Shown here in pieces: positions 5,006 to 64,000 of a stretch of DNA of 64,000 nt. The notes below the pieces were generated by a model. The model saw only the letters and a list, made by a program, of their open reading frames with translations, was not told the DNA's origin and ran no database searches. Position numbers and translations under genes: made by a program. Source of the stretch: Patescibacteria group bacterium (GTDB lineage: Bacteria; Patescibacteriota; Minisyncoccia; Phycocordibacterales; PALSA-1337). Where the stretch lies: the NCBI GenBank assembly GCA_040387635.1, contig JAZKDJ010000001.1:243851-307850 (forward strand). The letters are read 5' to 3'. The stretch's first letter is position 1; each line of letters starts with the position of its first letter.

Positions 5006-5044
5006 TCGCGATATAAATGTTGAAACTCTTCCGACACCTCCTCT

Positions 5045-5974
5045 TTAGATATTTCCTCCCTTCCGAGCCTGAGCAATAACCCAGTTATTGTATTTCTTGA
5101 GGAAAATAGGACCTCCAACAACGACGATGAGAACAACGAGAATTAGTGTTACGAGCAATTTCCATGGAAGAACCCAGATCCAGAAGCTGATTGGTTGAGC
5201 GGCTGCAGATTCAGAAAATGATACATCACTTGAAATCTTATAAGGTCCAAACATGAAGCCATCATCCTCGAATGTAATTCCATCTATTGATCGTGAGCTT
5301 GAAGGTAGTATTTGGTAATTTTTTCCGTTGAGAGGAACATTGCTTCTTATGTTTCCAAAAAGAGATGTTAGTCTTACGTCTCCCTGAGGTTTGACGTAAA
5401 TGTTCATATTGTTATCCACCCTAAGAGAGACAAGAAGTGGTAAAGGATTGTTCCAGAATAGCTTCTTGCCTCCAGCAGTTGTAAATGCAGAAGCGGTAGC
5501 TGCACCTGTTACTTCTCCTGATACATTGAGGTATACAAGAATTCCGGCTCGAGTGATGATCGCAACCTGTGATCCCTCACCAGAAGGAGGTGTCGTGCTC
5601 CACCAGACTACAGCGAAATGACCTCCCGGAGGAGCGTCTTTAGGAACTGTGATGGTAAATGGAATTTTCTTATCTTCTCCTGACTTGAGAGTAACTGATG
5701 GAACTGTCTTCACCCAGAGTGCGATGGCGCTCTGTTCCTTGCTGAATAGCTTTGTAGCGTTCGGCTCGGTAAACTTTTCGTACGACGGATAAAATGTCTT
5801 AGTCCCTTCTTCTTCGTTCTTAACGTAGAATTCTCCGGTAATGACTGTGCCGGGATCAACGTTATATTCAAGTTTTACCGGACCTACAGTAACTGCTGAA
5901 GCGAAGTTAGGTAAGATTACAGCGCAAATTATGATGAGTGACGCTAGTATCTTACAGACATTTTTATAATTCAT
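5045..5974 (-). CDS. DUF916/DUF3324-like two-Ig-domain cell-surface protein with C-terminal TM anchor
   Basis: 309 aa with a signal peptide. VTVGPVKLEYNVDPGTVITGEFYVKNEEEG...PFTITVPKDAPPGGHFAVVWW..AGILVYLNV is followed by a second beta domain (YQILPSSSRS) and a TM helix plus basic tail (LVTLILVVLIVVVGGPIFLKKYNN). The architecture resembles the anchored protein of Firmicute WxL loci, judged from memory of the family pattern. Confidence 0.5.
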   Translation of the reverse strand: MNYKNVCKILASLIIICAVILPNFASAVTVGPVKLEYNVDPGTVITGEFYVKNEEEGTKTFYPSYEKFTEPNATKLFSKEQSAIALWVKTVPSVTLKSGEDKKIPFTITVPKDAPPGGHFAVVWWSTTPPSGEGSQVAIITRAGILVYLNVSGEVTGAATASAFTTAGGKKLFWNNPLPLLVSLRVDNNMNIYVKPQGDVRLTSLFGNIRSNVPLNGKNYQILPSSSRSIDGITFEDDGFMFGPYKISSDVSFSESAAAQPISFWIWVLPWKLLVTLILVVLIVVVGGPIFLKKYNNWVIAQARKGGNI

Positions 5975-15040: not shown

Positions 15041-16288
15041 TTATGAAGCAATCACACCGTGAAATGGTAGCGGCAAACGCCTGAAAATATTAGCCTGTTG
15101 GTTTGGAAATTTCTTGAAGCTTGAACCCAGTGACACGGCCCCATCGCCATATTTAGATGTCAGCTTATCAACGGCTTTGAAGACATTTCTCAGAGCGCCC
15201 GTCCTGTCAGCATTGCCGAAGAAATCCTGTTGGACCACAACAACGCTCCGCATTTCACTTAACGTAACTCCTGATGCTCTATAGAGCATGTCAGAGTCGT
15301 GGACCTGAGAGAACGCCTTACGTATCTGAGGCATGATGTCATGCGGCACGTTGGTGTACGCAGGAAGAAACACTTCCGCTGAGTGTATTCGCATAAAGCG
15401 GTCCTTGATAAAAAAGTGTACTCTCCTACTCTCCAGATTATGTGAACGAGCACGCTCACATACAGCTTCGAGATGTTTAGACAGCTCTCGAAGCAACGGC
15501 TCAACCGAAGATGTAAAAGGCCTGAATGATCGAGTATCCGAAATAGACTTAAGCGGCTCAACGCATTCGTCCGGCACTCTGTTGTAGCCACCAACACTAA
15601 AGACTTTCTCACCCCGAAGCTCTCGCCATATCTCTCTCATAGGCAACGAGAAATTTTCTTTGATCCACCATTCTGGCTTACTTATGAAATTGCCAACTGT
15701 ATTAATTCCCTGAGCATGAAGGAAAGCTGTTCCACTTCTTCCAATTCCCCACACCTTACCTATAGGTACCTCATTAATTACTGAAGACATATTCTCCGCA
15801 TTGATCACAGTAACTCCCAAAGGCTTCTTGTGCTTGGAAGCGAGCTTCGCAAGCACCTTGGTTGGTCCTGCACCAAAAGAAACTCCAATGCCGAGCTGAG
15901 ACGTAACGTCATCCTGCATGCGCTTGAGAAGATTCGCCACCTCCTCAAATGTTCTCATACCAAGATCAGCAAAACATTCATCTATGCTGTAGCGCTGAAT
16001 TGATCCTACGTATTTTTCAATAATGGAAAACATACTCTCAGAATAAAGTTCGTATGACCTAAAGTCTGATCCGACGATGATAGCCTGTGGGCACATTTTC
16101 TTCACCATGAATATAGGCATGCCACGCTGGACTCCCAAAGCTTTTGCTTCATATGAAAACGCCGTAGCAATACTTTTGTCTCTTCCTACTACGACAGACT
16201 TGCCCTTGAGGGAGCTGTTCTTGGCGATCTCCACTGAAGCGAAGAATGCGTCGCCGTCGAGATGTAGTATGTAGTTTGTTTTTTCCAT
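15041..16288 (-). CDS. dinB: Y-family translesion DNA polymerase (Pol IV/DinB-like N-terminal motif; operonic with a UmuD-like gene)
   Basis: 415 aa. ILHLDGDAFFASVEIAKNSSLKGKSVVVG...YSIDECFADL carries the Y-family catalytic motifs. It lies 33 nt downstream of the S24 peptidase gene. Confidence 0.8.
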   Translation of the reverse strand: MEKTNYILHLDGDAFFASVEIAKNSSLKGKSVVVGRDKSIATAFSYEAKALGVQRGMPIFMVKKMCPQAIIVGSDFRSYELYSESMFSIIEKYVGSIQRYSIDECFADLGMRTFEEVANLLKRMQDDVTSQLGIGVSFGAGPTKVLAKLASKHKKPLGVTVINAENMSSVINEVPIGKVWGIGRSGTAFLHAQGINTVGNFISKPEWWIKENFSLPMREIWRELRGEKVFSVGGYNRVPDECVEPLKSISDTRSFRPFTSSVEPLLRELSKHLEAVCERARSHNLESRRVHFFIKDRFMRIHSAEVFLPAYTNVPHDIMPQIRKAFSQVHDSDMLYRASGVTLSEMRSVVVVQQDFFGNADRTGALRNVFKAVDKLTSKYGDGAVSLGSSFKKFPNQQANIFRRLPLPFHGVIAS

Positions 16289-16321: not shown

Positions 16322-16666
16322 CTAATACTTCCGAATGACTGACCTCACCACTCCTTCAACATTCAAATGGTCCTTGGGGTACATGGGCGAATAATGAGAG
16401 TTGGCAGCTTCGAGAAACGGTCGGCCATGCTGCTCTCTGTAATACTTGAGCGTGTGCTCTCCATCAATATCTGCAACCACTATCTCTCCCGGACGTGCAG
16501 CATCTGTACGCTCTACGATCACCATATCCCCATCGATGATGCCTGCGTCTTTCATGGAGTTGCCTTTGACCCTCATGAGATACGAAGCTTCTTTGCGCGG
16601 GATAAGATAGTCATCGAGAGTGATGGTATCTGAATTTTTATCGCTGAGATGATTGAATGCGCTCAT
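16322..16666 (-). CDS. S24 peptidase, UmuD-like (no DNA-binding domain, no recognisable N-terminal cleavage segment)
   Basis: 114 aa. LDDYLIPRKEASYLMRVKGNSMKDAGIIDGDMVIVERTDAARPGEIVVADIDGEHTLKYY carries the Ser (GNSM) / Lys dyad context of LexA/UmuD. Confidence 0.8.
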   Translation of the reverse strand: MSAFNHLSDKNSDTITLDDYLIPRKEASYLMRVKGNSMKDAGIIDGDMVIVERTDAARPGEIVVADIDGEHTLKYYREQHGRPFLEAANSHYSPMYPKDHLNVEGVVRSVIRKY

Positions 16667-18311: not shown

Positions 18312-19010
18312 CTAATAATGTGTTGCCTGACTTTGCCTTCGGAATCGGTTAACCGCTTCATGAGCTTGACGCGTCGGCTCAGGAAGGCGGTAACCGCGAA
18401 GGCAAAGCCTAACGACCTCGATCGCCTGCTCCAGACTCACGAGATGTCCCGGAGAGACGATGAGTGGGTTCGATCTCTTCTTGGAATGCATGGCGACACC
18501 TATGACCTCGCCCGTTGAGGGATCCTTGATCTCCTGAAACGAGCCTGTTTCCGAAAGACCGCTCTCCACGGAATCATAGACTCCGTAGAGCACGCTCTTG
18601 GCACAGCCAATAGTCGGCGTCTCCGTAAGCACTCCAAAATGTGATGCAATTCCCAGTCGCCGGGGATGAGCTATCCCCTGGCCGTCAACGATAATGAGAT
18701 CCGGTTTTCTTTTTAAATTTTTATAGCATGTAAGGAGTGAAGGAATTTCTCTGAACGAAAGAAGTCCAGGTATATATGGAAAATTAGTCTGCTCTTTAGT
18801 AAACGATTCTTCGAGCAGCTCAAGCTCTGGATATGAAAATACTACAATGCCCGCGTAAGCATCGCTCTCATAGAGATTCATGGAAACATCGGCGCCAGCT
18901 ACAGTCTTGATTTCTTTCTCAAGTGGAACAACCTTCACCTTGTGGCGAATTTCCTGCTGCAACCGGACTGCTTCCAGTGGAGTTAAATTTTGAGTAAAAT
19001 TCTGTTTCAT
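18312..19010 (-). CDS. nfi: Endonuclease V
   Basis: 232 aa. VAGADVS...YIPGLLSFREIPSLL...PDLIIVDGQGIAHPRRLGIASHFGVLTETPTIGCAKS are canonical Nfi motifs. Confidence 0.9.
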   Translation of the reverse strand: MKQNFTQNLTPLEAVRLQQEIRHKVKVVPLEKEIKTVAGADVSMNLYESDAYAGIVVFSYPELELLEESFTKEQTNFPYIPGLLSFREIPSLLTCYKNLKRKPDLIIVDGQGIAHPRRLGIASHFGVLTETPTIGCAKSVLYGVYDSVESGLSETGSFQEIKDPSTGEVIGVAMHSKKRSNPLIVSPGHLVSLEQAIEVVRLCLRGYRLPEPTRQAHEAVNRFRRQSQATHY

Positions 19011-19016
19011 GATATT

Positions 19017-20375
19017 TTATTTCGTCTTGCCCTTACTCTTTGTTCTACGTACTGAATTCTTCAGTGCTCCATGTATAAGTTCCTCCGTATAATCACGTCC
19101 CTTATACAGAATGCTCCTGAGCGTGTGCGTGCGGCGAGGATTATACAATTCTTCGTATTCATTTTTTCGGCCCAAGATCATATCGGCAAACATCATTCCA
19201 GCGAGCGTTCCATATGTCATACCGTTTCCTGAGAAGCCTGTAGCGCTGTAATGGTTCGGATGCTTCTTGTCATATCGTCCAATCAAAGCCAAGCCATCAG
19301 AAGGCTCGATAATTGGACCGTTCCAGCGGCGCACTATTGTATATGGAATGTCCCCTAAGATTTTCTTAGTATATTCCTCAAGTGCAGAATAATTTTTGTC
19401 CTCATCAATCGGAATTTCCTGGCGATGATCCTCTCCTCCAATAATGAGACGATCGAGGGAAGGATCAACCTTGCCAGAGCTTGTCACTCCAAGACCTTTG
19501 TCCACTCTGAAATAGTGGTAGGGATTTTCACCATCCTCATACAAAGCCTCTGGAAATGTTTCTGTAGGAATCGAAAGTTCAAAAACATATGTTATGTATG
19601 TTCCCTTTTTGAGTTTAGTCAGGCCAGGTTCAACCATTGGCTTGTATGTTGCAACGACAACATTATTAGCAATGATGCTTGGTCCTGTGGCATCCTTACC
19701 ATTGGTTCCTGGTTTGGCTGTATGTACTGTTATTGTTTTCTCTCCCTCAATCCGCACAACCTCAGTCTGATCATAAAACCTTACTCCCTTTTCATGGGCT
19801 TTTGCTTTTAAGCACGAAAGGTATTGGACGGGATGGAACTTTGCCTGGAAAGGAGTTTCGATGCCGCCGAAGTTAGGAAAAGGAAGCTTAACTCCTTCGA
19901 TTTCTTTCAAAGGAAATCCTCCCTTACACGCTTCCTCTGCATCCTCCTTCAAATCAGAAGCCTGCTTCTCATCGGTTCCAAATGAATACATCGGTACTCT
20001 TTTGAATTCACATGTAAAATTGCACTCCCGCATATTTTTCTCAATAAGATCAATAGCGCGGCGCTTGGATTCAAAAACCTGAATCGCCTTCTCGCGGCCA
20101 AACATATTAATAAGGTCCACGAATTGAGTATCCACAACATATGTAATGAATGCGGTCGTATATGCTGACACAGTCTCATTGAGATCGCCCTTATCAACAA
20201 CCACCACGTTCCTACCTTCCTTTGCCAGGAGATAAGCAGTTGTGATGCCGGTAATGCCGGCGCCCACGATGACGACATCAGCCATGATGTTCTCATTGAG
20301 CGGAGGGTAGACCTTAAGGTCATCCATCTGCCATGTGGTTTGCGACTTTTTCATATGCTCAGTATGTCTTGTCAC
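19017..20375 (-). CDS. FAD-dependent oxidoreductase (DAO/glycine oxidase-like family)
   Basis: 452 aa with the Rossmann dinucleotide motif ADVVIVGAGITGITTAYLLAKEGRNVVVVDKG near the N-terminus. The start codon is uncertain (alternative ATGs at 20354 and 20327). Confidence 0.75.
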   Translation of the reverse strand: MTRHTEHMKKSQTTWQMDDLKVYPPLNENIMADVVIVGAGITGITTAYLLAKEGRNVVVVDKGDLNETVSAYTTAFITYVVDTQFVDLINMFGREKAIQVFESKRRAIDLIEKNMRECNFTCEFKRVPMYSFGTDEKQASDLKEDAEEACKGGFPLKEIEGVKLPFPNFGGIETPFQAKFHPVQYLSCLKAKAHEKGVRFYDQTEVVRIEGEKTITVHTAKPGTNGKDATGPSIIANNVVVATYKPMVEPGLTKLKKGTYITYVFELSIPTETFPEALYEDGENPYHYFRVDKGLGVTSSGKVDPSLDRLIIGGEDHRQEIPIDEDKNYSALEEYTKKILGDIPYTIVRRWNGPIIEPSDGLALIGRYDKKHPNHYSATGFSGNGMTYGTLAGMMFADMILGRKNEYEELYNPRRTHTLRSILYKGRDYTEELIHGALKNSVRRTKSKGKTK

Positions 20376-20411
20376 AATTAAGTCCTGATGAACATAAATA
20401 TCCCGTCATGC

Positions 20412-20440
20412 TTGCTAGTGAACAACTGTTCACTTATAAT
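20412..20440 (+). promoter_or_regulatory. Predicted promoter with an SOS (Cheo-type) operator filling the 17-nt spacer
   Basis: TTGCTA-gtgaacaactgttcact-TATAAT. The palindrome GTGAAC-N4-GTTCAC spans 20418..20433, about 52 nt upstream of the ATG at 20492. Confidence 0.65.
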
Positions 20441-20491
20441 ATAGAAACAAATTCTCTCCTATTCGCTAGTTTTTCTGCACCTCCAAACTTT

Positions 20492-21961
20492 ATGAATCAC
20501 CTCAAAGAATCAATATTTGCCATCGTCGATATAGAAACCACCGGATCAAGCCCTATCAGAGAGCGGGTAATCGAGATCGGTATTCTTCGCGTTGAGAATG
20601 GCAAGGTTACAAAAAAATATCAGAAGCTGATTGATCCTCAGAAATATTTGCCGCCATCAATCCAAGACATCACAGGAATCCGTCCTAATGATCTAGTAGG
20701 TGCTCCCCTGTTTGAAGACATCGCCCAAGAAGTGCATGAGCTTCTTAATGGTGCCATCTTTGTGGCGCACAATGTTCGTTTCGATTATGGCTTTATAAAA
20801 AACGAGCTCAAGCGTTCTGGAATAATCTGGAATGCAAAATGTTTGTGTACAGTAAGGCTTTCAAGAAAGCTCTTCAAGAAGTACAAACACCACGACCTAT
20901 CGAGCATTATCGACCGTTATGGATTTACGTGCGAAAACCGTCACAGAGCATATGATGACGCGGCAGTACTCTGGGATTTCATGAACATGATCGTCGCCGA
21001 AGGACATGGCGAGAAAATGAACAAAGCTATCGACGAACTTCTACAAACAAGAACCCTTCCGCAATTTCTCGATGAGAAAAGCGTCTCCAATCTTCCTTCT
21101 GAACCAGGAGTGTATATTTTCTATGGCCCTGACGACGAAGTGCTCTATGTAGGCAAAAGCAGGAACCTCAAGTATCGAGTAATGTCACATTTTGCCAATG
21201 ACCATCGTGAAGGAAAAGAAATGAACATATGCCAGCAAACTAAGCGTGTCGAAGTAAGAGAAACTTCTGGCGAACTTGGAGCTCTTCTCCTTGAGTCAGA
21301 ATTAGTTAAAAAGTATTCCCCTCTCTACAACAGAATGCTAAGGAGGAGCTCTGAGCTCGTGCTCGCCAAGCGACGTAGGACGGACTCGTACCATGAAATT
21401 TTCCTTGAACGCTCAAGTGAAATAGTCCCGCAAGAATACAAGGACACTCTCGGGGTTTTCAAAAATATGATCCAGGCGAAAGAATTTCTCAAGGGTTCCT
21501 GCGATGAATGGCAGCTCTGCCCCAAGCTCATGGGAATTGAGAAATCAAAAGGTGCCTGTTTCTATTCACAGCTCGGCAAATGCAAAGGTGCATGCAAAAA
21601 CAAAGACAATGCTGATGAATACAACCTGCGCCTTGCCGAAGCATTCGCAAGCAGGCGCCTCAAGGCATGGCCCTTCGATGGCGCAATCATCATCGATGAG
21701 AAGCGTGACGATATGGAGAAACATTCCTTTGTGCTCGACAATTGGTGCCTAATAGCAAATATCAAAACCGAAGAAGATGGCGTCGAGTTTGTATCCCACT
21801 CCCCTAAGTTCGATTATGATAGTTATAAGATCTTCGCCAGATATCTCTCCGATCCCGCGCACAAGCGAAATATCAAACCAATAACAAAACGAGAGCTGGC
21901 GTCCATCCTTCACAACGAAAGCGTTGCCGAAAGTGAGGAGTACCTGACTACAATAATTTAA
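20492..21961 (+). CDS. DnaQ-like 3'-5' exonuclease fused to a GIY-YIG (UvrC-homologue/Cho-like) nuclease
   Basis: From ATG 20492: FAIVDIETTGSS...FVAHNVRFDYGFI...HRAYDDAAVLW are DEDDh Exo I-III motifs. PGVYIFYGPDDEVLYVGKSRNLKYRVMSHF...ELGALLLESELVKKYSPLYN is a GIY-YIG domain. The track ORF start at 20333 would include the promoter. Confidence 0.8.
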   Translation: MNHLKESIFAIVDIETTGSSPIRERVIEIGILRVENGKVTKKYQKLIDPQKYLPPSIQDITGIRPNDLVGAPLFEDIAQEVHELLNGAIFVAHNVRFDYGFIKNELKRSGIIWNAKCLCTVRLSRKLFKKYKHHDLSSIIDRYGFTCENRHRAYDDAAVLWDFMNMIVAEGHGEKMNKAIDELLQTRTLPQFLDEKSVSNLPSEPGVYIFYGPDDEVLYVGKSRNLKYRVMSHFANDHREGKEMNICQQTKRVEVRETSGELGALLLESELVKKYSPLYNRMLRRSSELVLAKRRRTDSYHEIFLERSSEIVPQEYKDTLGVFKNMIQAKEFLKGSCDEWQLCPKLMGIEKSKGACFYSQLGKCKGACKNKDNADEYNLRLAEAFASRRLKAWPFDGAIIIDEKRDDMEKHSFVLDNWCLIANIKTEEDGVEFVSHSPKFDYDSYKIFARYLSDPAHKRNIKPITKRELASILHNESVAESEEYLTTII

Positions 21962-23022: not shown

Positions 23023-23096
23023 CGCGGCCGATGGGACTCGAACCCACGACCTCTCCCGTGACAGGGGAGCGTTCTAGCCAGCTGAACTACGGCCGC
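23023..23096 (-). tRNA. tRNA-Asp (anticodon GTC)
   Basis: The reverse complement is GCGGCCGTAGTTCAGCTGGCTAGAACGCTCCCCTGTCACGGGAGAGGTCGTGGGTTCGAGTCCCATCGGCCGCG. Anticodon stem is CTCCC/GGGAG with loop CTGTCAC. Confidence 0.9.
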
Positions 23097-23857: not shown

Positions 23858-23931
23858 TGTCGGCGGAAGGGATCGAACCTTCGACCTTGGGCTTATGAGT
23901 CCCACGCTCTAGCCAACTGAGCTACGCCGAC
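23858..23931 (-). tRNA. tRNA with anticodon CAT, elongator-type (Met, or Ile2 if lysidine-modified)
   Basis: The reverse complement is GTCGGCGTAGCTCAGTTGGCTAGAGCGTGGGACTCATAAGCCCAAGGTCGAAGGTTCGATCCCTTCCGCCGACA. G1:C72 is paired and C11:G24 is present (elongator features). The anticodon loop is CTCATAA. Confidence 0.85.
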
Positions 23932-24048: not shown

Positions 24049-24120
24049 TTGCGGAGGCCGGAGTTGAACCGGCAGTTTTCAGGTTATGAGCCTGACGGGT
24101 TACCGTTACCCTACCCCGCT
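24049..24120 (-). tRNA. tRNA-Met (anticodon CAT), probable initiator
   Basis: The reverse complement is AGCGGGGTAGGGTAACGGTAACCCGTCAGGCTCATAACCTGAAAACTGCCGGTTCAACTCCGGCCTCCGCAA. It has an A1/A72 mismatch at the top of the acceptor stem and a purine11:pyrimidine24 pair. Only two, not three, G:C pairs lie next to the anticodon loop. Confidence 0.75.
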
Positions 24121-56205: not shown

Positions 56206-58452
56206 ATGCCCGAACTCGCAAAAACTTCTCCAACCACATCCACTCCCTCTCTCACACTCCGCACTCCTGTAACTAAGCTAAGCCGCATTAACGCAGGTCA
56301 GGAGAAAGCCCTGCAAAAACTCGGCATCAAAACTGTTGAAGATCTTCTCTATCATTTCCCTGCTCGATACGGTGACACGTCCGAAACATTTAATATCCAA
56401 TCTCTTCAGCGTGGACAACAAGCAGTTGTCTTTGGAAGAATCACTGATCTCAAAACTGGCAAAGGTTTCAAGACTCGAGTCTCTATGGCTACAGGAACCG
56501 TTGAAGACGAATCTGGGTCAATTCAATGTGTCTGGTTTAACCAACCATATCTCGCCAAGATGACGGCAGAAGGAGCGATGGTCCGAATCGAAGGAAAAGT
56601 TTCCCAAAAGAAACCAAAGAAAGACGCAGCGGGTGCGGAGATCCCAGGCAAGCTGTATTTCTCAAATCCAAAAATCGAAATCGTAAACAAGCTCCCTGTA
56701 GGCGTTGGCGAATCACTTTTTGGTGACGAGAGTGGTGACCATACACTGTATCCAATCTATCCCGAATCAAGAGGTGTCACATCCAACTGGATGTACCATG
56801 CTATCCAAAGAGTTTTCAAAAGCGGACTCCTTGAATCCCTCGTCGATCCTATTCCAACCGACATTCTCACTAAATACAATCTCCCCTCACTCAAGACCGC
56901 CATTATTTGGATTCATACTCCACTCAAACAGTCAGACGCCCAGGCAGCCCGTAAGCGCTTTGCATTCGAAGAAGTTTTCTTCATTCAGCTCGGAAAATTC
57001 AAACTTCGAAAAGAATACGAAAAGGAAAAAGCCTTTCGCATCGAGACTCAGGCACAAACCGCGCAAGAGTTTACCAAAAGATTTCCGTTCGAACCTACTG
57101 ATGCCCAAAAGAATGCCATTAGCGCAATCCTCGATGACTTCAAAAAAGGCTACCCTATGTCGCGCCTTCTCGAAGGAGACGTAGGTTCAGGCAAAACCGC
57201 AGTGGCTGCAGCAACTGTATATGCAGTCACAACGACGCGCCCAGCAGGCAAAACAGCAGGCTTCCTCCAAACCGCCTACATGTGCCCTACCGAAATTCTT
57301 GCCACGCAACATTTCGAATCTTTCATTCAATACTTCGCATACCTTGGTATCAACATCGCACTTATCACTGGAAGCGGTTGCAGAAAGTTTCCTTCAAAGG
57401 TAAATCCAAAAGGCTGGACTGATATCTCTCGTACACAGCTTCTTAAGTGGGTAGCCAACGGCGAGATTCCTATCCTCATCGGTACGCACGCTCTCATTCA
57501 AAAAGCAGTAAAATTCAAAGACCTCGCATATGTCATCATCGACGAGCAGCACCGCTTCGGAACATCGCAGCGTTCCAAGCTCGTACGCAAAGACAGCGCC
57601 ACAGCCAAAATTCCCCACCTACTCTCCATGACCGCGACTCCGATTCCTCGTACCCTCGCGCTTACTGTCTATGGCGACCTCGACCTAACGCTTCTCGACC
57701 AAATGCCTCACGGAAGAAAACCAATCATCACCGAGATCGTTCTTCCCAACAAGCGAGATGAGATCTACGAACATATCCGTACTGAGATAAAAAATGGCAG
57801 ACAGGCATACATTATTTGTCCGCGCATCAACGAACCTGATCCCGACAAGGAAGCTGCGGTTATTGCAAAGTCAGTCAAAGAAGAAGCTAAACGACTGAAG
57901 CGAGATGTCTTCCCTGAATTTTCTATAGGCATTCTTCATAGCAAAATGAAGCCTACTGAGAAGGACAAGGCCATGCTCGAATTCAAACAAGGCAAAACTC
58001 ACATCTTGTGCGCAACATCAGTTGTCGAAGTTGGAGTAAACGTTCCTAACGCCACCATGATCATAATCGAAGGTGGAGAGCGATTTGGATTGGCTCAGCT
58101 TCATCAGCTGCGAGGCCGAGTGATCAGAAGTAATCACCAAGCTTTCTGTTACGTATTTACAGAGAGCAGTGGCGACAAAACCATGGATCGCCTCAATGCT
58201 CTCAAGACTGCCAAGAATGGTTTCGAGCTCGCTGAGTTCGATCTCAAATTCCGAGGTGCAGGTGAACTCTATAATGGTAAACAATGGGGCGTTTCAGACA
58301 TCGCCATGGAAGCCCTCCAAAATCTCAAGATGGTTGAAGCTGCTCGTACCGAAGCAATTTCCATTATAGAAAACCACAAAGATTTGAGTGAACTTCCCCT
58401 TCTCCAGGAGGCACTGGAAAAAAGAAAAAACGACGAGATACATTTTGAATAA
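56206..58452 (+). CDS. recG: ATP-dependent DNA helicase RecG
   Basis: From ATG 56206: a wedge/OB N-terminus (LLYHFPARY), then helicase motifs LEGDVGSGKT, DEQHRFG, MTATPIPRT, SVVEVGVNVPNAT and QLRGRVIR. The track start at 56029 overlaps the upstream minus-strand gene. Confidence 0.95.
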   Translation: MPELAKTSPTTSTPSLTLRTPVTKLSRINAGQEKALQKLGIKTVEDLLYHFPARYGDTSETFNIQSLQRGQQAVVFGRITDLKTGKGFKTRVSMATGTVEDESGSIQCVWFNQPYLAKMTAEGAMVRIEGKVSQKKPKKDAAGAEIPGKLYFSNPKIEIVNKLPVGVGESLFGDESGDHTLYPIYPESRGVTSNWMYHAIQRVFKSGLLESLVDPIPTDILTKYNLPSLKTAIIWIHTPLKQSDAQAARKRFAFEEVFFIQLGKFKLRKEYEKEKAFRIETQAQTAQEFTKRFPFEPTDAQKNAISAILDDFKKGYPMSRLLEGDVGSGKTAVAAATVYAVTTTRPAGKTAGFLQTAYMCPTEILATQHFESFIQYFAYLGINIALITGSGCRKFPSKVNPKGWTDISRTQLLKWVANGEIPILIGTHALIQKAVKFKDLAYVIIDEQHRFGTSQRSKLVRKDSATAKIPHLLSMTATPIPRTLALTVYGDLDLTLLDQMPHGRKPIITEIVLPNKRDEIYEHIRTEIKNGRQAYIICPRINEPDPDKEAAVIAKSVKEEAKRLKRDVFPEFSIGILHSKMKPTEKDKAMLEFKQGKTHILCATSVVEVGVNVPNATMIIIEGGERFGLAQLHQLRGRVIRSNHQAFCYVFTESSGDKTMDRLNALKTAKNGFELAEFDLKFRGAGELYNGKQWGVSDIAMEALQNLKMVEAARTEAISIIENHKDLSELPLLQEALEKRKNDEIHFE

Positions 58453-58494: not shown

Positions 58495-60999
58495 TTATCG
58501 ATTCGTCTTCAGAAGAAATATGTCTGGAGTCGAAGATGTGCTATACGTCGTAAGTTTGAAATTATTTCCAAAGTCAGTGTATACAGCATCTGGAGCAGTA
58601 GCAGTTGGCCTTGAGCCGAACCTACCCACCCAGTACACTCCGTCATTGGCAGCTAAAGTATCAAATACCTCTTCTGATCCATGACCTATGATGCGAGACC
58701 ACACATGACCTCCTGCTGGCGTGAACTTAGCCATACCAGCATTGAATCCGCTTCGCAATACACTTATTGTTCCTCCCCCGAAATCGACTGCTGCTCCTGC
58801 TCGTATTGCTACATAGATATTTGAGAGCTCATCCACCGACACTCCGTTTCCGATATCGGTATTAAAGCTACCAAAAGATTTTGACCAGATATGTCCACCC
58901 GTAGTGCTTGCATACTTAGCAACAAAAACATCTTCTTCACCTACAGGAGTGAGCTGCTGACCTCCCATGTTGCCGCTCAAACGATAATTTCCTACCATAA
59001 CGAGATCATTTGATCGGTCCGCTGCAATTCCACCCGGAGTATCATAACCCGTCGCCCCCGCGCGGTGTGACCATATATGACTTCCTGTTGAAGTAAACTT
59101 TCCATAGAATACATCATAGCTTCCAGCTGATGTTAGCAAACCTTTTAGAGAATCCTCTGGAGCAAGATCAATGTTTACAGAAAATCTTCCTGCAACATAA
59201 ACATTGTTATTTGAATCAATTGCAACTCCAGTGGCTGAATCATCTGTACCACTATTTCCGAATGCTTTTGCCCACGAAGTTAATCCTGTCGATGCCTGAA
59301 GTTTAGCTACGTATGCTTCCTTTCCACCACGATTTGGTAATTGAGGTGCGCCTATCGTCGTAATGTCGAGAAGCGAACCAACAATTACAGGATTACCCGC
59401 TGTATCCAATGTCATTGCAGTAACTGTTTCATCACCTGCGAAATCAGCTGCACTCTCTGAACCAAACGCTCTATGCCAAACATATGCACCATTTGAACGG
59501 TATTTCACTACGAAGGCATCATACCCACCACGCGATACAACCGGAGTCGCTCCAAAGGTTGACGTTGCATAGAAATGACCCGCAACATAAACATCTCCAA
59601 TACTATCTACTGCCATTGCCTGTACACTGCCGGCACTCTCAAATGCTTTTGTCCAAATTACCTGCTGATTATCGGGAGATAGTTTTGCTATGTATGCCCT
59701 ACTGTCTACACTACCTCCTACATAAGCATTTCCAGAAGCGTCGCGTGCAACTGCAAACCCGTAATCACTCGTCAAACCTCCTAATTGTTTTACTGACAAT
59801 GTAGATCCAGGAACTGCAGCTACGTTAGAAACATTCACAGTGACTGAAGACTGAGCTGAGTTTCCTGCTGCATCACGTGCTGTAGCAACCAATGTATGGC
59901 TACCGTTCGCAACTGCTCGAGTATCCCACTGAAGTGAATATGGAGTAATATCGTCATCTGATCCTAGAGATGCACCAGTACCTGTCGTAAAGCGAACGCT
60001 CTGAACTCCAACACTATCCGTAGCATCAGCACCCACAAACACAACACCAGATACAGTACTACCATTCGCTGGTGACAAAAGCGTAACTACAGGTGGAGTA
60101 GTATCCCCCTTTGAAGTTACAGACATTGGATTAGTGCTGATCTTTAGAGATTCATTGCCAGCCGCGTCGAAAGCAGAAATTTTGTATTCATAGAGTTTTC
60201 CGCCAGCAAGATTACTATCTATATATTGCGGAGTTTGAATAGTGGCAATCTTTGAGGACACTCCGTCAGTTATCCTGTACACGTAATAACCTGTAACTCC
60301 GACATTATCGACTGCTGAAAACCACTGCAGGGAAATTGAGCTTGCCGTTATACCAATCTTAAATGGGCCTGTTATAGGAAATGTTGGTGCTATCGTATCA
60401 ACAGTGTCTTTGGGTTCAGCAATAACAGGTACTTTAACAACAGGAGTTGTGGTTGCAATAGGAGTAACTACAGGCGTCGTAGTCGCTGTTGTTGATGGAG
60501 TTGTAGTTGCTGTTGTGTCAGCCAATGTTCTTCTAGCGGCTGATGCTTTCTCAGATTCATTCCCTGCTGCATCAAACGCAGATATTTTGAAGAAATAAAT
60601 AGTATACGGAGTAAGATTTGTAACTCGGTATGAAGTTGTTCCAGTTACAGTAGCAATCAATTCAAAAACCGGCGTAGGATAAACTGCTTTATAAATCTTA
60701 TAGCCAGCCACTCCGACGTTGTCTCTAGACTGCCACCATGTCAGTGTCAGTCCTGTTGATGTAACCCCAGAGATGCTCGGAAGCTGAGGATATGTAGGCG
60801 GCTCAATATCGGTTGATGGAGCAACTTGTGCAGCACCAGATGTCGCCGAGCCATTTAATCGATTGAAAAAATTCTCAAGATGAGAAAAAATCTTTTGCAT
60901 TCCTGAACGTTCCGTCTGCGCTTGAGTTACTACAGGAGAACTTGCGATGATAAAAACAGAGACAAATAAGACTACTAAAAGATGTTTAATGTATTTCAT
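58495..60999 (-). CDS. Large secreted protein: two FN3 domains, Thr-rich linker, bacterial Ig-like domain, C-terminal SBBP-type beta-propeller repeats
   Basis: From ATG 60999: signal peptide MKYIKHLLVVLFVSVFIIASSPVVTQA. FN3 regions are LTLTWWQSRDNVGVAGYKIYK..ISAFDAAGNES, seen twice. The Ig-like region is TLLSPANGSTVSG..ATDSVGVQSVRF..GSHTLVATARDAAGNS. Repeated motifs such as DxxGNxYVxG, YDAFVVKY and EDVFVAKY are typical of SBBP repeats. Confidence 0.7.
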   Translation of the reverse strand: MKYIKHLLVVLFVSVFIIASSPVVTQAQTERSGMQKIFSHLENFFNRLNGSATSGAAQVAPSTDIEPPTYPQLPSISGVTSTGLTLTWWQSRDNVGVAGYKIYKAVYPTPVFELIATVTGTTSYRVTNLTPYTIYFFKISAFDAAGNESEKASAARRTLADTTATTTPSTTATTTPVVTPIATTTPVVKVPVIAEPKDTVDTIAPTFPITGPFKIGITASSISLQWFSAVDNVGVTGYYVYRITDGVSSKIATIQTPQYIDSNLAGGKLYEYKISAFDAAGNESLKISTNPMSVTSKGDTTPPVVTLLSPANGSTVSGVVFVGADATDSVGVQSVRFTTGTGASLGSDDDITPYSLQWDTRAVANGSHTLVATARDAAGNSAQSSVTVNVSNVAAVPGSTLSVKQLGGLTSDYGFAVARDASGNAYVGGSVDSRAYIAKLSPDNQQVIWTKAFESAGSVQAMAVDSIGDVYVAGHFYATSTFGATPVVSRGGYDAFVVKYRSNGAYVWHRAFGSESAADFAGDETVTAMTLDTAGNPVIVGSLLDITTIGAPQLPNRGGKEAYVAKLQASTGLTSWAKAFGNSGTDDSATGVAIDSNNNVYVAGRFSVNIDLAPEDSLKGLLTSAGSYDVFYGKFTSTGSHIWSHRAGATGYDTPGGIAADRSNDLVMVGNYRLSGNMGGQQLTPVGEEDVFVAKYASTTGGHIWSKSFGSFNTDIGNGVSVDELSNIYVAIRAGAAVDFGGGTISVLRSGFNAGMAKFTPAGGHVWSRIIGHGSEEVFDTLAANDGVYWVGRFGSRPTATAPDAVYTDFGNNFKLTTYSTSSTPDIFLLKTNR

Positions 61000-61092: not shown

Positions 61093-61120
61093 AAAGCCTC
61101 GGTGACATCACCGAGGCTTT
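61093..61120 (-). terminator. Hairpin terminator after the glycoside hydrolase gene
   Basis: A 12-bp stem aaagcctcggtg / caccgaggcttt with loop acat. The T-rich tail on the minus strand is weak. Confidence 0.6.
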
Positions 61121-61135
61121 CGCAAGATACTCTTC

Positions 61136-62293
61136 TCAATCAGTTGTTGATTGTCCCGGATCGCCTCGATCAATGGCGACGTGAGCAAGATGCCAAAGAT
61201 TGTTTTCCCCAACAAACTCCACCACCTTCGCCGGCCCACCTTCAGACAGCAGTTTCCCCAGAAGCTTAGGCTTTCCGTCCAGGCGAATGTCGCCGAAATG
61301 ATGCTGCAGAACATCTTCCCAGCCCGTCGTTACTTTGCGAACAGACTCTTCGGATAGATGCATATCATAGAGCGTGAACCAATAAACCCTCTCGATATCA
61401 TGAGCTTCGACTGCTTGCAGCGCATCAACGAAAACAGCTGCCTGTATTTCCTCAAGAAGCTCGTCATCAAACTTAGGATGAGGTCCCGTGGCAGTATGGT
61501 TGGTAGTCGAGAAGCCATACTCAGTCATCCACACCCTGATGTCGCGATCGGTATACCGCGCCAAAAGCCGGTTCATGGTCGACACCCTCTCCTTCCATGG
61601 AGGTGGTGGAGCTTTCTCTTCCCACGTACCTCGAAGACCGTGCATTCCAAAAACATCTACATGCTCGAGAATACCCAGTGTACAAGCGCGCTCCAGCCAC
61701 TGCCCTATAGTGTTCGGCCCGCCCATCACCACTTTTTTCCCAGCTGCATGACATGCCTTCGCACCGGACGCGAACATATTCAGGAACTTAGTTCCATCTG
61801 GATCAAGACTCCCGTCCCAATCTGTTATCAAGTTCGGCTCATTCCATAATTCGAGATATTCGAAATGATTGCCGAATTCGAAGAGGACCTCTGACACGAA
61901 CTGCCCAAACATCTCAGGCTGTCTCGGAGGAGAATTGATGCGAGGCTCAATGCCAAGCTCAGGCGGAGTGTATGTGAGATTTGGAAGGATGGTGAAATGC
62001 TCCGCAAGAAACGGAAGATACCACCTGATCCACTCTTTTCCTCCGGGATAGAACCACTCGGTCCATGAGATTCCAGTCCTGATGTGATTGACTCCCCTTT
62101 TGATCAACTCCCTCGCCATGTTCTCAACAGCCATTTTCTGCTGCTGCAACTTTGGGTCGCTGATCAACTTCGTTTCAATTGCGAGAAGCTTTCCAAGATT
62201 TGCGTTACTAAGGAACTCAGGAAAACACTTGGTCCACACCAAGTATCCCATTGCAGGCTGCACAAGCGGTGTTGCCATATTTTTTCCTTTCAT
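61136..62293 (-). CDS. Cytoplasmic TIM-barrel glycoside hydrolase, clan GH-A-like (GH5/GH39-type motifs)
   Basis: 385 aa with no signal peptide. The acid/base context is YLELWNEPN and the nucleophile context is IRVWMTEYGFS. It lies in a locally GC-richer segment with stacked shadow ORFs. Confidence 0.6.
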   Translation of the reverse strand: MKGKNMATPLVQPAMGYLVWTKCFPEFLSNANLGKLLAIETKLISDPKLQQQKMAVENMARELIKRGVNHIRTGISWTEWFYPGGKEWIRWYLPFLAEHFTILPNLTYTPPELGIEPRINSPPRQPEMFGQFVSEVLFEFGNHFEYLELWNEPNLITDWDGSLDPDGTKFLNMFASGAKACHAAGKKVVMGGPNTIGQWLERACTLGILEHVDVFGMHGLRGTWEEKAPPPPWKERVSTMNRLLARYTDRDIRVWMTEYGFSTTNHTATGPHPKFDDELLEEIQAAVFVDALQAVEAHDIERVYWFTLYDMHLSEESVRKVTTGWEDVLQHHFGDIRLDGKPKLLGKLLSEGGPAKVVEFVGENNLWHLAHVAIDRGDPGQSTTD

Positions 62294-62348
62294 CTTAAAA
62301 GGATTATCCGCTGTGAAGATTAATTTAAAAGTAAGTCCTAATTATCTG

Positions 62349-62422
62349 TGCGCCTGCTTGGATTCGAACCAAGGACCCCAAAGGTATAAGCTTTGTGCTC
62401 TAACCAACTGAGCTACAGGCGC
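62349..62422 (-). tRNA. tRNA-Ile (anticodon TAT)
   Basis: The reverse complement is GCGCCTGTAGCTCAGTTGGTTAGAGCACAAAGCTTATACCTTTGGGGTCCTTGGTTCGAATCCAAGCAGGCGCA. Anticodon stem is CAAAG/CTTTG and loop is C-T-TAT-A-C, so positions 34-36 read TAT. Confidence 0.85.
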
Positions 62423-62525
62423 ATTTATATAGTGCGGTTTTCATCATAAACCAAAATCCCAAAACATGCCACGCTTGCAAAAAATCAGAAGTCGTCTAGA
62501 GTCTATAACAGAACGTGTTTAAAGT

Positions 62526-62984
62526 ATGAGCGCTTGGCGAAAACTTCTAAAAGAATCCCCAACAGATCTTGTTTTCATTGACCTTCCTAAGGATAGAGAT
62601 CCTACGGGGTGGCAAAACCTTCCTGCTGAACGGCCGGGCAATCCCCTGAAGATTCCACTCGGTGGACTAAGCAGCCACTTCAATGGAGCTTTTGAGGATT
62701 TTCTGCGGGAATACCATCCCAAAGGAATTGTCATGAGTTGGCTGGCGAATGGCGACCTTATCTGTCCGTCGAGATACAAACAGATCATCGCTCTCAACTT
62801 CTACAACATCGAGGTGTTTGTGCCTCAACCGTGCGACAACATTCCTGGGACTGGGACCGGCTGCTTCGTTACTCATTACTCCAACGACAATCCATCCGGA
62901 CACACCATCATCGGAGTGGTGGACACTTTCCCCTCCGCGACATCCTTCGAACCGAAGATGCGGAAGCTCATCTACGGGGGTTAA
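62526..62984 (+). CDS. Hypothetical protein (GC-richer islet)
   Basis: 152-aa ORF followed by a strong terminator. No motif recognised, and overlapping shadow ORFs sit on both strands. Confidence 0.45.
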   Translation: MSAWRKLLKESPTDLVFIDLPKDRDPTGWQNLPAERPGNPLKIPLGGLSSHFNGAFEDFLREYHPKGIVMSWLANGDLICPSRYKQIIALNFYNIEVFVPQPCDNIPGTGTGCFVTHYSNDNPSGHTIIGVVDTFPSATSFEPKMRKLIYGG

Positions 62985-63103: not shown

Positions 63104-64000
63104 ATGAAAAGAAACGAAACAATCCCTCTCATCATTCTTCTCATTGTCTCTATATGCACCTTCGTCCATGTCGTTAACTTGATGGGATACGATGAGGTTT
63201 TTAAATTTTCGGGAACTCGACCGTCAACGCCCTTCAAAACTCAAGCCGCCTTATCTAAAGAAGGTTCAGCATCTCTAGCTGAAGGATTTCTAGCGCCCCT
63301 CGAAAAAGAAAAAGCTTTCACGGTGATCGTCCTCCCAGATACTCAGAAGTACTCCGCGGAATTCCCTCACATCATGTGCAACCAAACAGAATGGATTGTC
63401 GCGAACAGAGAAAGACTCAATATACTTTTCGTCTCACACATGGGAGACATCGTTGATGACGTTGAGGAAGAGAAACAATGGAAAGCAGCTTCAGAGTGCA
63501 TGAGCAGGCTTGATGGCAAAGTTCCTTATGGAATTATTCCAGGCAATCACGACCAATCTTCCAAAGTTGATTTCGATATGTACAACCAATACTTCCCTCT
63601 TTCACGATTCAGTACACACCCTTCTTATGGAGGTAACTACAAGGAGAACCGAAATAACTACAGCATCGTAACGTTTGAAGGCAAAGATTTTCTTTTTCTC
63701 AATTTAGAAATTGAACCAACTGACGATGTCTTAGACTGGGCAGCCGAAGTAACCCGAAAGAACTCTAGCGCGTACATTATAATGACGACGCACAAATATC
63801 TCCCTGATTACGGAAGTGAGCGTGACAAAAAATTGGAATATAGGAAAACCGGCAACACAGGACAGAAGATCTGGGACAAGTTTATCGAAGAATCATGTAA
63901 CGTAAACATGACATGGTCCGGTCATTTCCATTCCAAAGGCGGCGAGAACAGAATCACGAGCGAAGACAAATGTGGCAACACCATCTACCAAATAACTCAA
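63104..64000 (+). CDS. Membrane-anchored metallophosphoesterase (calcineurin-like), 3'-truncated by the window edge
   Basis: Absent from the track because it is open-ended. My translation from ATG 63104 gives MKRNETIPLIILLIVSICTFVHVV...FTVIVLPDTQKYSAEFPH...FVSHMGDIVDD...GIIPGNHD...MTTHKYL...WSGHFH, which carries the metallophosphoesterase motifs. Confidence 0.75.
   Translation, partial: MKRNETIPLIILLIVSICTFVHVVNLMGYDEVFKFSGTRPSTPFKTQAALSKEGSASLAEGFLAPLEKEKAFTVIVLPDTQKYSAEFPHIMCNQTEWIVANRERLNILFVSHMGDIVDDVEEEKQWKAASECMSRLDGKVPYGIIPGNHDQSSKVDFDMYNQYFPLSRFSTHPSYGGNYKENRNNYSIVTFEGKDFLFLNLEIEPTDDVLDWAAEVTRKNSSAYIIMTTHKYLPDYGSERDKKLEYRKTGNTGQKIWDKFIEESCNVNMTWSGHFHSKGGENRITSEDKCGNTIYQITQ

Follow-up and report, generated by a model that had tools for sequence, protein, structure and literature searches.

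TilS, the enzyme of the lysidine system, is considered essential, and about 98% of the bacterial genomes with annotation encode it (PMC12514573). An isoleucine tRNA with an encoded UAU anticodon, tRNA-Ile(UAU), was described together with the lack of tilS for nine species from three clades, among them Mycoplasma mobile, M. haemofelis, M. suis, Bifidobacterium and Neorickettsia (PMC3575796), and tRNADB-CE holds a TAT gene for 19 species (PMC4013482). With these earlier counts of 9 to 19 species, tRNA-Ile(UAU) is still called rare in a 2026 preprint (10.64898/2026.02.03.703510). Here we describe such a gene on the minus strand, at positions 62349..62422, of a 64,000-nucleotide stretch from the genome of an ultra-small bacterium of the Patescibacteria (contig JAZKDJ010000001.1); this whole stretch is hereafter called the window. 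A protein of the window has its exact counterpart on contig JAWVHC010000019.1 (586,594 bp, locus tags V4526_) of assembly GCA_040384225.1. We assign the gene to the known kind, tRNA-Ile(UAU) without TilS, as a new member.

Mycoplasma mobile (Taniguchi et al. 2013, PMC3575796) resembles the source organism in its encoded UAU anticodon, its small genome and, probably, the decoding of AUA without lysidine. There, the absence of tilS, the unmodified U34, the role of Arg865 of the isoleucyl-tRNA synthetase (IleRS) and the ribosomal discrimination against AUG were shown experimentally. In addition, M. mobile represents an isolated loss within the Tenericutes, whereas a large radiation has retained the gene described here at a single locus; this gene also differs from that of M. 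mobile in its anticodon loop CUUAUAC with C38. Bifidobacterium and Neorickettsia combine the UAU tRNA with a eukaryote-type (type-2) IleRS and lack tilS as well (PMC3575796). Lactobacillus plantarum and L. casei share the chromosomal tRNA-Ile(TAT) gene (PMC3575796). However, they keep the canonical system, while TilS was not found in the regions examined here and the count of CAU tRNAs fits a replacement.

Within the same phylum, the Saccharibacterium Southlakia epibionticum (PMC10633639 supplement) has to perform the same AUA-decoding task and shows a link to the ftsH locus as well. Yet it does so with C34 and the enzyme, in contrast to U34 and probably no enzyme here: tilS lies directly upstream of ftsH, whereas in the relatives studied here tRNA-Ile(UAU) lies just downstream of ftsH. 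The complete genome of Southlakia contains exactly three "tRNA-Met" (CAU) genes, none more than about 6 kb away from tilS, as well as a single tRNA-Ile, and it lacks a TAT gene, while two CAU genes and one TAT gene were seen here. That a single change can replace TilS is known from a tRNA-Ile1 G34U suppressor of a tilS deletion in Bacillus subtilis, which turns the anticodon into UAU (PMC3919564, as cited in PMC3575796). It is a laboratory mutant of the major GAU tRNA, whereas the gene discussed here is an old, dedicated minor tRNA. Archaeal tRNA-Ile(UAU) occurs in reduced genomes without TiaS, for example in Nanoarchaeum and Korarchaeum, and both the archaeal and the phage-borne genes represent the same anticodon solution in another domain or in a mobile context.

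A genomically encoded UAU anticodon

62349..62422, minus strand: tRNA-Ile(UAU) gene (ARAGORN, Rfam RF00005, orthologue covariation)

Read on the minus strand, window positions 62349..62422 give the 74-nucleotide sequence GCGCCUGUAGCUCAGUUGGUUAGAGCACAAAGCUUAUACCUUUGGGGUCCUUGGUUCGAAUCCAAGCAGGCGCA. ARAGORN called a tRNA-Ile with the anticodon tat at 62348..62422 on the minus strand, with no differing fold or anticodon, while Rfam RF00005 was matched over the whole model at 62349..62422 (-) with 73.2 bits (gathering score 29, E = 4e-14). This is the highest score among the seven tRNAs of the window, the other six being Thr(CGU), Thr(GGU), Asp(GUC), Ser(GCU) and two CAU tRNAs, and the Rfam alignment contains zero non-standard pairs. 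The acceptor stem is GCGCCUG/CAGGCGC, followed at the 3' side by the discriminator A73, while CCA is not encoded. The anticodon stem CAAAG/CUUUG encloses the seven-nucleotide loop C32-U33-U34-A35-U36-A37-C38, in which U33 and A37 are present and positions 34-36 read U-A-U. Compared with E. coli tRNA-Ile1, the identity is about 69%. A preliminary description of the window, made from the sequence alone, had reported a clean 74-nucleotide cloverleaf of a tRNA-Ile with a TAT anticodon, and ARAGORN and Rfam agree with it. The stem CAAAG/CTTTG and the loop C-T-T-A-T-A-C were found as written there and the coordinates stand as well, while the strand has to be corrected to minus.

Related loci were sampled in two ways. 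For the FtsH-anchored sample, metagenomes were scanned with the FtsH of the source genome alone, which delivered 80 loci with 65-81% FtsH identity. The TAT-anchored sample was drawn from one genome per Genome Taxonomy Database (GTDB) species, using an Ile-type D-arm plus a TAT anticodon, and comprises at least 120 loci. tRNA-Ile(tat) was present in 66 of the 80 FtsH-anchored loci, and in 50 of the 53 that extend 2 kb or more beyond ftsH on its downstream side. These 66 copies (from loci L122-L201; 61 distinct sequences) were aligned as orthologues. Among the 61 distinct sequences standard pairs occupy 99.4% of the pair positions, compensatory double changes occur in 17 of 21 pairs, and C32, U33, U34, A35, U36 and A37 are invariant. 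Since this invariant C32-U33-U34-A35-U36-A37 recurs in 66 of 80 loci picked by FtsH similarity only, window positions 62349..62422 are confirmed, far beyond chance, as a true tRNA-Ile whose UAU anticodon is encoded in the genome. Standard pairing, compensatory changes and the unvarying loop positions 32-37 together argue for strong purifying selection on both fold and anticodon. Position 34 in particular is T in the window gene and in all 61 distinct orthologues, where the lysidine system has C34.

Position 38, opposite C32, is C in 62 of the 66 copies and U in the remaining 4. In contrast to this pyrimidine of the clade, TAT tRNAs of Planctomycetota, of Firmicutes and of most viral contigs have A38. 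One might speculate that the combination of C32 with a pyrimidine at position 38 tunes the binding of the weak, all-A/U anticodon.

Synteny with ftsH and inheritance of the gene

The tRNA is part of a conserved gene order, in which recG points towards it, tRNA-Ile(UAU) and ftsH are both read in the opposite direction, and smpB and the transfer-messenger RNA (tmRNA) follow. This order is found in the source genome as well. In the relatives the tRNA sits inside the convergent recG/ftsH interval, and upstream of ftsH there is usually smpB where this region is visible (at least 1.5 kb upstream in 56 of the 80 FtsH-anchored loci). The source genome, in addition, carries a surface protein gene and a 385-aa open reading frame (ORF) between recG and the tRNA, and a 152-aa ORF and a Metallophos phosphoesterase gene between the tRNA and ftsH:

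56206..58452, plus strand: recG (Pfam RecG_wedge, DEAD, Helicase_C, RecG_dom3_C)
58495..60999, minus strand: fn3 / Big_7 / SBBP surface protein (Pfam), lineage-specific insertion between recG and the tRNA
61136..62293, minus strand: hypothetical 385-aa protein (V4526_01645, MES2470915.1), without a Pfam match and in a singleton cluster, lineage-specific insertion
62443..62472, minus strand: candidate promoter GTGGCA, 18 nucleotides, TATGAT (consensus scan)
62526..62984, plus strand: hypothetical 152-aa protein, a called gene with no Pfam match, divergent from the tRNA, lineage-specific insertion
63104..64000, extending to about 64156, plus strand: Metallophos phosphoesterase, between the tRNA and ftsH (gene table)
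about 64167..66182, just beyond the window, minus strand: ftsH (gene table of locus L001 and coordinate mapping)
about 66785..67782 in window numbering (L001 4512..4916 and 5027..5509): tmRNA and smpB next to ftsH

No homologues of the four genes flanking the tRNA were found in the 80 FtsH-anchored loci of relatives. It is the flanking genes that were inserted and not the tRNA. tRNA-Ile(UAU) is a core gene of Patescibacteria of the Paceibacteria/Parcubacteria type, ancestrally located between recG and ftsH, around which four lineage-specific genes have come to lie in the source genome. Across the relatives, tRNA identity follows FtsH identity; in L122, for example, FtsH is 78% and the tRNA 94.6% identical. 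All of the at least 120 TAT-anchored loci were called tRNA-Ile(tat). Among the 120 of them that were listed, ftsH was found in 33, recG in 24 and smpB in 15; 23 have the tRNA under 1 kb downstream of a co-oriented ftsH, and recG adjoins the tRNA in 24, as it does in most FtsH-anchored loci. Because nearly all close relatives carry the tRNA at the same chromosomal spot, it is a vertically inherited core gene that was not recently acquired.

Regarding the immediate surroundings, the 385-aa ORF has the orientation of the tRNA and begins 55 nucleotides beyond its 3' end, so that both may be co-transcribed; a terminator-like hairpin (61120..61093) comes after this ORF. The candidate promoter ends 21 nucleotides upstream of the 5' end of the tRNA, within the 103-nucleotide AT-rich spacer that precedes the divergent ORF at 62526. 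The number of promoter-like sites in the region (3, against 2.4 in shuffles) is not above chance. The tag of the tmRNA next to the source ftsH reads ANTVVSKAKSIVSPFFGASDFSFAYARA and closely resembles the tag of L028, a Taylorbacteria metagenome-assembled genome (MAG). The gene content of the window as a whole fits the Patescibacteria label, comprising a type IV pilus cluster, GatCA, LigA, RecG, DinB, endonuclease V, glycosyltransferases and large surface proteins. Far from the tRNA, a gene for a DAO-family FAD oxidoreductase (19017..20375, minus strand) adjoins that of a DnaQ-like exonuclease-GIY-YIG nuclease fusion (20333..21961, plus strand). With the nearby genes for endonuclease V (18312..19010), for a polymerase of the DinB type (15041..16288) and for an S24 peptidase resembling LexA (16322..16666), they make up a small DNA-repair neighbourhood.

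AUA decoding and the lysidine system

For codon usage, 58 approximate gene calls were evaluated, which together span 91% of the window. Of their 19,412 codons, 282 are ATA (14.5 per 1000), equal to 19.6% of the Ile codons, while more than 10 per 1000 is regarded as high (PMC12514573); the usage check proposed in the preliminary description thus delivers a heavily used codon. At the ATA positions of FtsH, RecG and SmpB the residues of relatives are I in 51%, L in 25%, V in 15% and M in 3% of cases, with the relatives' own ATA codons translated as Ile in this comparison, while at the ATG positions of the same proteins M makes up 64%. Frequent use and the alignment with Ile, Leu and Val in relatives show that AUA means Ile in the source genome and requires a decoder.

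We consider it likely that this decoder is the tRNA described here, as a functional and vertically inherited minor tRNA-Ile(UAU) that reads AUA directly and would probably be the only AUA decoder of the cell. In this scheme the anticodon U34-A35-U36 would pair directly with AUA, U34 with A3, and the lysidine-modified tRNA-Ile2(CAU) made by TilS would therefore not be needed. tRNA-Ile(GAU) would read AUU and AUC, and the two CAU tRNAs of the window would serve as initiator and elongator Met. Both tilS and tRNA-Ile2(CAU) would be absent from the genome, the tRNA would be charged by an IleRS that tolerates U34, and A37 is expected to carry N6-threonylcarbamoyladenosine (t6A), as in other tRNAs for ANN codons. 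Misreading of AUG would have to be limited, be it through the state of U34, through competition from tRNA-Met or, as M. mobile does it (PMC3575796), at the ribosome.

The two CAU tRNAs are close neighbours:

24049..24120, minus strand: initiator-type tRNA(CAU) (ARAGORN; Rfam marks 1:72 as non-standard)
23858..23931, minus strand: elongator tRNA(CAU), read as tRNA-Met (ARAGORN, Rfam; A31·G39 non-standard)

The preliminary description knew only the latter, which it took as non-initiator; this holds, but it is not the only one of the window, given the second gene at 24049..24120. The initiator-type tRNA shows an A1·A72 mismatch and the pairs G30-C40/G31-C39, and is 72-79% identical to initiator-type tRNAs of other loci of the Candidate Phyla Radiation (CPR). 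Its A1·A72 stands against C1·A72 in E. coli, while related CPR initiators have U1 opposite A72. The elongator CAU tRNA shares 65% identity with the UAU tRNA but 71-78% with the elongator CAU tRNAs of L005, L015 and L070, and may, by this resemblance, be taken for Met and not for Ile2. Next comes tRNA-Asp(GUC) at 23023..23096, and the resulting Met-Met-Asp order equals that of Candidatus Yanofskybacteria PMX_810_sub (PMC10936435 supplement). In four other CPR loci an initiator CAU, an elongator CAU and a UAU tRNA are clustered, each exactly once. The 80 FtsH-anchored loci contain zero CAU tRNAs. A side observation concerns the 31:39 pair of the CPR elongator tRNA-Met, which is not Watson-Crick in the window (A·G), in L015 5928-6001 and L070 3603-3678 (both A·A) and in L005 330-404 (A·C), effectively leaving an anticodon stem of 4 bp.

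TilS was searched for in the window plus locus L001 (72 kb for these two) and in 200 related loci, 1.78 Mb altogether. The SGGxDS PP-loop motif was found neither in the window and L001 nor in the 120 listed TAT-anchored and the 80 FtsH-anchored loci, and a TilS profile built on PDB entries 1NI5, 3A2K and 1WY5 gave nothing better than E = 2.3 in the entire 1.78 Mb. Comparison of the 48 larger of the 58 called window ORFs with Pfam revealed no enzyme of tRNA modification, neither TilS nor MnmA/E/G, and no IleRS. Nor was a tilS-like ORF found in the fetched sequence of 113 loci that contain ftsH. The search for ileS by class-I synthetase motifs in the window and the fetched loci yielded only ORFs similar to valyl-tRNA synthetase (ValRS) and to tryptophanyl- or tyrosyl-tRNA synthetase (TrpRS/TyrRS). 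The Pfam domain DUF5915 is one we take to mark type-2, eukaryote-like IleRS. In the annotation of the one cultured member of the class, Minisyncoccus archaeiphilus, IleRS carries DUF5915 at its C-terminal part (PMC12281837 supplement). Through this one relative, and by our reading of the Pfam domain, the likeness to Bifidobacterium and Neorickettsia mentioned above would extend to the synthetase. The same annotation contains no K04075 or PF01171 in 603 of its about 1,306 rows, which is partial evidence. Partial evidence comes likewise from Candidatus Yanofskybacteria PMX_810_sub, where the only "lysidine synthase" entry in the available part belongs to an N-acetyl sugar amidotransferase without K04075. 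From the roughly 72 kb of the source and the related loci, we infer a genome-wide loss of TilS and tRNA-Ile2(CAU), and we favour, as fairly likely, that tRNA-Ile(UAU) replaces both.

Several explanations that leave aside this replacement concern the gene itself or the meaning of its codon. It is extremely improbable that the gene is a pseudogene or was miscalled, with a true anticodon or fold other than the one reported. Thermodynamic folding of the lone sequence does give a minimum-energy structure that is not the cloverleaf, but this is a common outcome for tRNAs and uninformative for them, whereas two independent tRNA finders concur, the covariance score is the best of the window without any non-standard pair, and compensatory changes in 17 of 21 pairs together with an unvarying loop are seen across 61 distinct orthologues. 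The preliminary description had instead seen the tRNA in a GC-richer islet bracketed by terminators and supposed that it was perhaps acquired. At fine scale the GC content is 0.53 in the tRNA, 0.28-0.39 in the AT-rich spacers on either side and 0.42-0.59 in the flanking coding DNA, and it is flat (0.41-0.47) over the whole window, so that the rise is the tRNA alone between AT-rich spacers. Four terminator-like hairpins were counted where shuffled sequence gives 2.3 +/- 1.4, which is the chance level, and none follows directly after the tRNA on its own strand. A recent acquisition, of a horizontally transferred, phage- or island-borne gene, would agree with the abundance of TAT tRNAs in viral contigs (at least 118), with the lineage-specific immediate neighbours that lack homologues in relatives, and with the distant CPR locus L070, where a TAT tRNA abuts an integrase and a coupling protein of a type IV secretion system (T4SS). 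Nevertheless, we judge it highly unlikely, since the tRNA keeps its recG/ftsH position in 50 of 53 relatives selected without regard to it and its identity follows that of FtsH. No integrase or other mobile-element gene was seen in the tRNA interval in the gene table and by Pfam, and it is the neighbouring genes that are the insertions. A phage origin was considered given the many viral TAT tRNAs and rejected, as the best match among those listed is only 81% identical, compared with 95% in a syntenic relative; most of the viral TAT tRNAs listed have A38 or U38. Very little likewise speaks for a recoding, in which AUA would be read as another amino acid (for example Met, as in many mitochondria) or the tRNA would read both AUA and AUG. 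An unmodified U34 can pair with G by wobble rules, and the tRNA-Ile(UAU) of M. mobile fails to distinguish AUA from AUG on E. coli ribosomes (PMC3575796). However, I, L and V make up 91% of the residues at ATA positions and M 3%, again with relatives' ATA taken as Ile, against 64% M at ATG positions.

The question whether tRNA-Ile(UAU) replaces the lysidine system or only supplements it is of a different kind, and some points weigh against a replacement. The sequence read from the source amounts to about 72 kb of a MAG of multiple contigs, so tilS and a third CAU tRNA could lie elsewhere, and the CAU tRNA at 23858..23931 was assigned to Met by resemblance rather than by a trained classifier. 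Furthermore, Southlakia possesses TilS, so CPR bacteria can have it (PMC10633639 supplement), and tRNA-Ile(UAU) and tilS coexist in Lactobacillus plantarum and L. casei (PMC3575796). Finally, in the FtsH-anchored loci L170, L180 and L184 no tRNA-Ile(tat) was found within 4.5-7 kb of ftsH. These considerations lend some weight to a redundant decoder, with tilS and tRNA-Ile2(CAU) elsewhere in the genome and the UAU tRNA only supplementing AUA decoding: the coexistence is documented, one Saccharibacteria genome encodes TilS, and about 88% of the source contig as well as the other contigs lie outside the sequence read. Yet dispensability sits ill with retention at one locus and an unvarying anticodon loop across a deep radiation. 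Besides, none of the 113 ftsH-containing loci revealed a tilS-like ORF, whereas tilS of Southlakia lies directly upstream of ftsH. The numbers of tRNAs speak in the same direction: three CAU tRNAs go with no TAT in the TilS-positive CPR genome, clusters of two CAU and one UAU occur in TAT-positive CPR loci, and the CAU tRNAs of the window are a single initiator and a single elongator. On balance a redundant decoder, the foremost rival reading, appears unlikely, though it should be kept in mind, and we prefer tRNA-Ile(UAU) as the replacement of TilS and tRNA-Ile2(CAU).

As to L170, L180 and L184, smpB-ftsH is present in all three, with neither a tRNA-Ile(tat) in the 4.5-7 kb downstream nor a TilS-like ORF, and the tRNA may have relocated in these lineages.

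Spread in Patescibacteria and its implications

Species-representative genomes contain at least 120 tRNA-Ile(TAT) genes, of which at least 67 belong to lineages labelled CPR. Therefore the "small minority such as Mycoplasma mobile" to which the preliminary description had confined this solution understates its spread. Among the matches listed, further TAT carriers are Planctomycetota, Chloroflexota, Ignavibacteria, actinomycetes, Firmicutes, Micrarchaeota and other DPANN-type archaea. In L031, L043 and L046 (Planctomycetota) and in L069 (Lachnospiraceae) the TAT tRNA lies within arrays of 17-35 tRNA genes in 8 kb, some of them with odd 4-base "anticodons", a context unlike the single-copy core locus of the CPR. 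Many taxon labels of MAGs from Third Party Annotation (TPA) entries, such as "uncultured Candidatus Saccharibacteria" and "uncultured Gammaproteobacteria", are unreliable (L082, L036, L077, L087, L100, L004, L029 and others). FtsH of L082, which is labelled Saccharibacteria, has its best matches in Yanofskybacteria and Taylorbacteria, and several others are 69-82% identical to the source in FtsH. Another setting was observed in L070 (5710..7978, a distant CPR MAG), where the TAT tRNA abuts genes for a tyrosine recombinase/integrase and a T4SS coupling-protein-like product; in that lineage it may be an integration site or element-borne. That the L070 tRNA is the in-situ successor of the third CAU tRNA of Southlakia was considered too, but is not established, as the integrase intervenes and the strand differs.

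In the literature searched, we found none that links Patescibacteria or CPR with tilS or lysidine; a jumbo-phage paper naming both lysidine and Saccharibacteria turned out to be a false lead. One might envision that a class-level radiation of Patescibacteria (Paceibacteria/Minisyncoccia-type Parcubacteria), perhaps even much of the phylum, gave up TilS and lysidine, and that its frequent AUA codon is read by a dedicated U34 tRNA with a conserved loop of C32 and a pyrimidine at position 38, which would have kept its place beside ftsH from the origin of the group onwards and perhaps works with a type-2 IleRS. We regard the chances of this wider scenario as evenly balanced.

Taken on its own, the gene described here has been called correctly and, as a core tRNA, is nothing unusual in its lineage; the lineage-wide pattern is the more interesting lead. 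Since tRNA-Ile(UAU) is found at the same spot in nearly all close relatives, a decoding solution described as "rare" looks routine in Patescibacteria. If TilS was lost throughout the lineage, no other bacterial group that decodes AUA with U34 would come close to Patescibacteria in size, and the many natural variants among them could be used to study how misreading of AUG by a U34 tRNA is prevented. In that case, completeness markers based on TilS, as well as antibacterial ideas that target TilS, would be inapplicable to Patescibacteria. What has been regarded as the "rare exception" of Mycoplasma mobile would then, if true, be what is normal in a considerable part of the diversity of bacteria.

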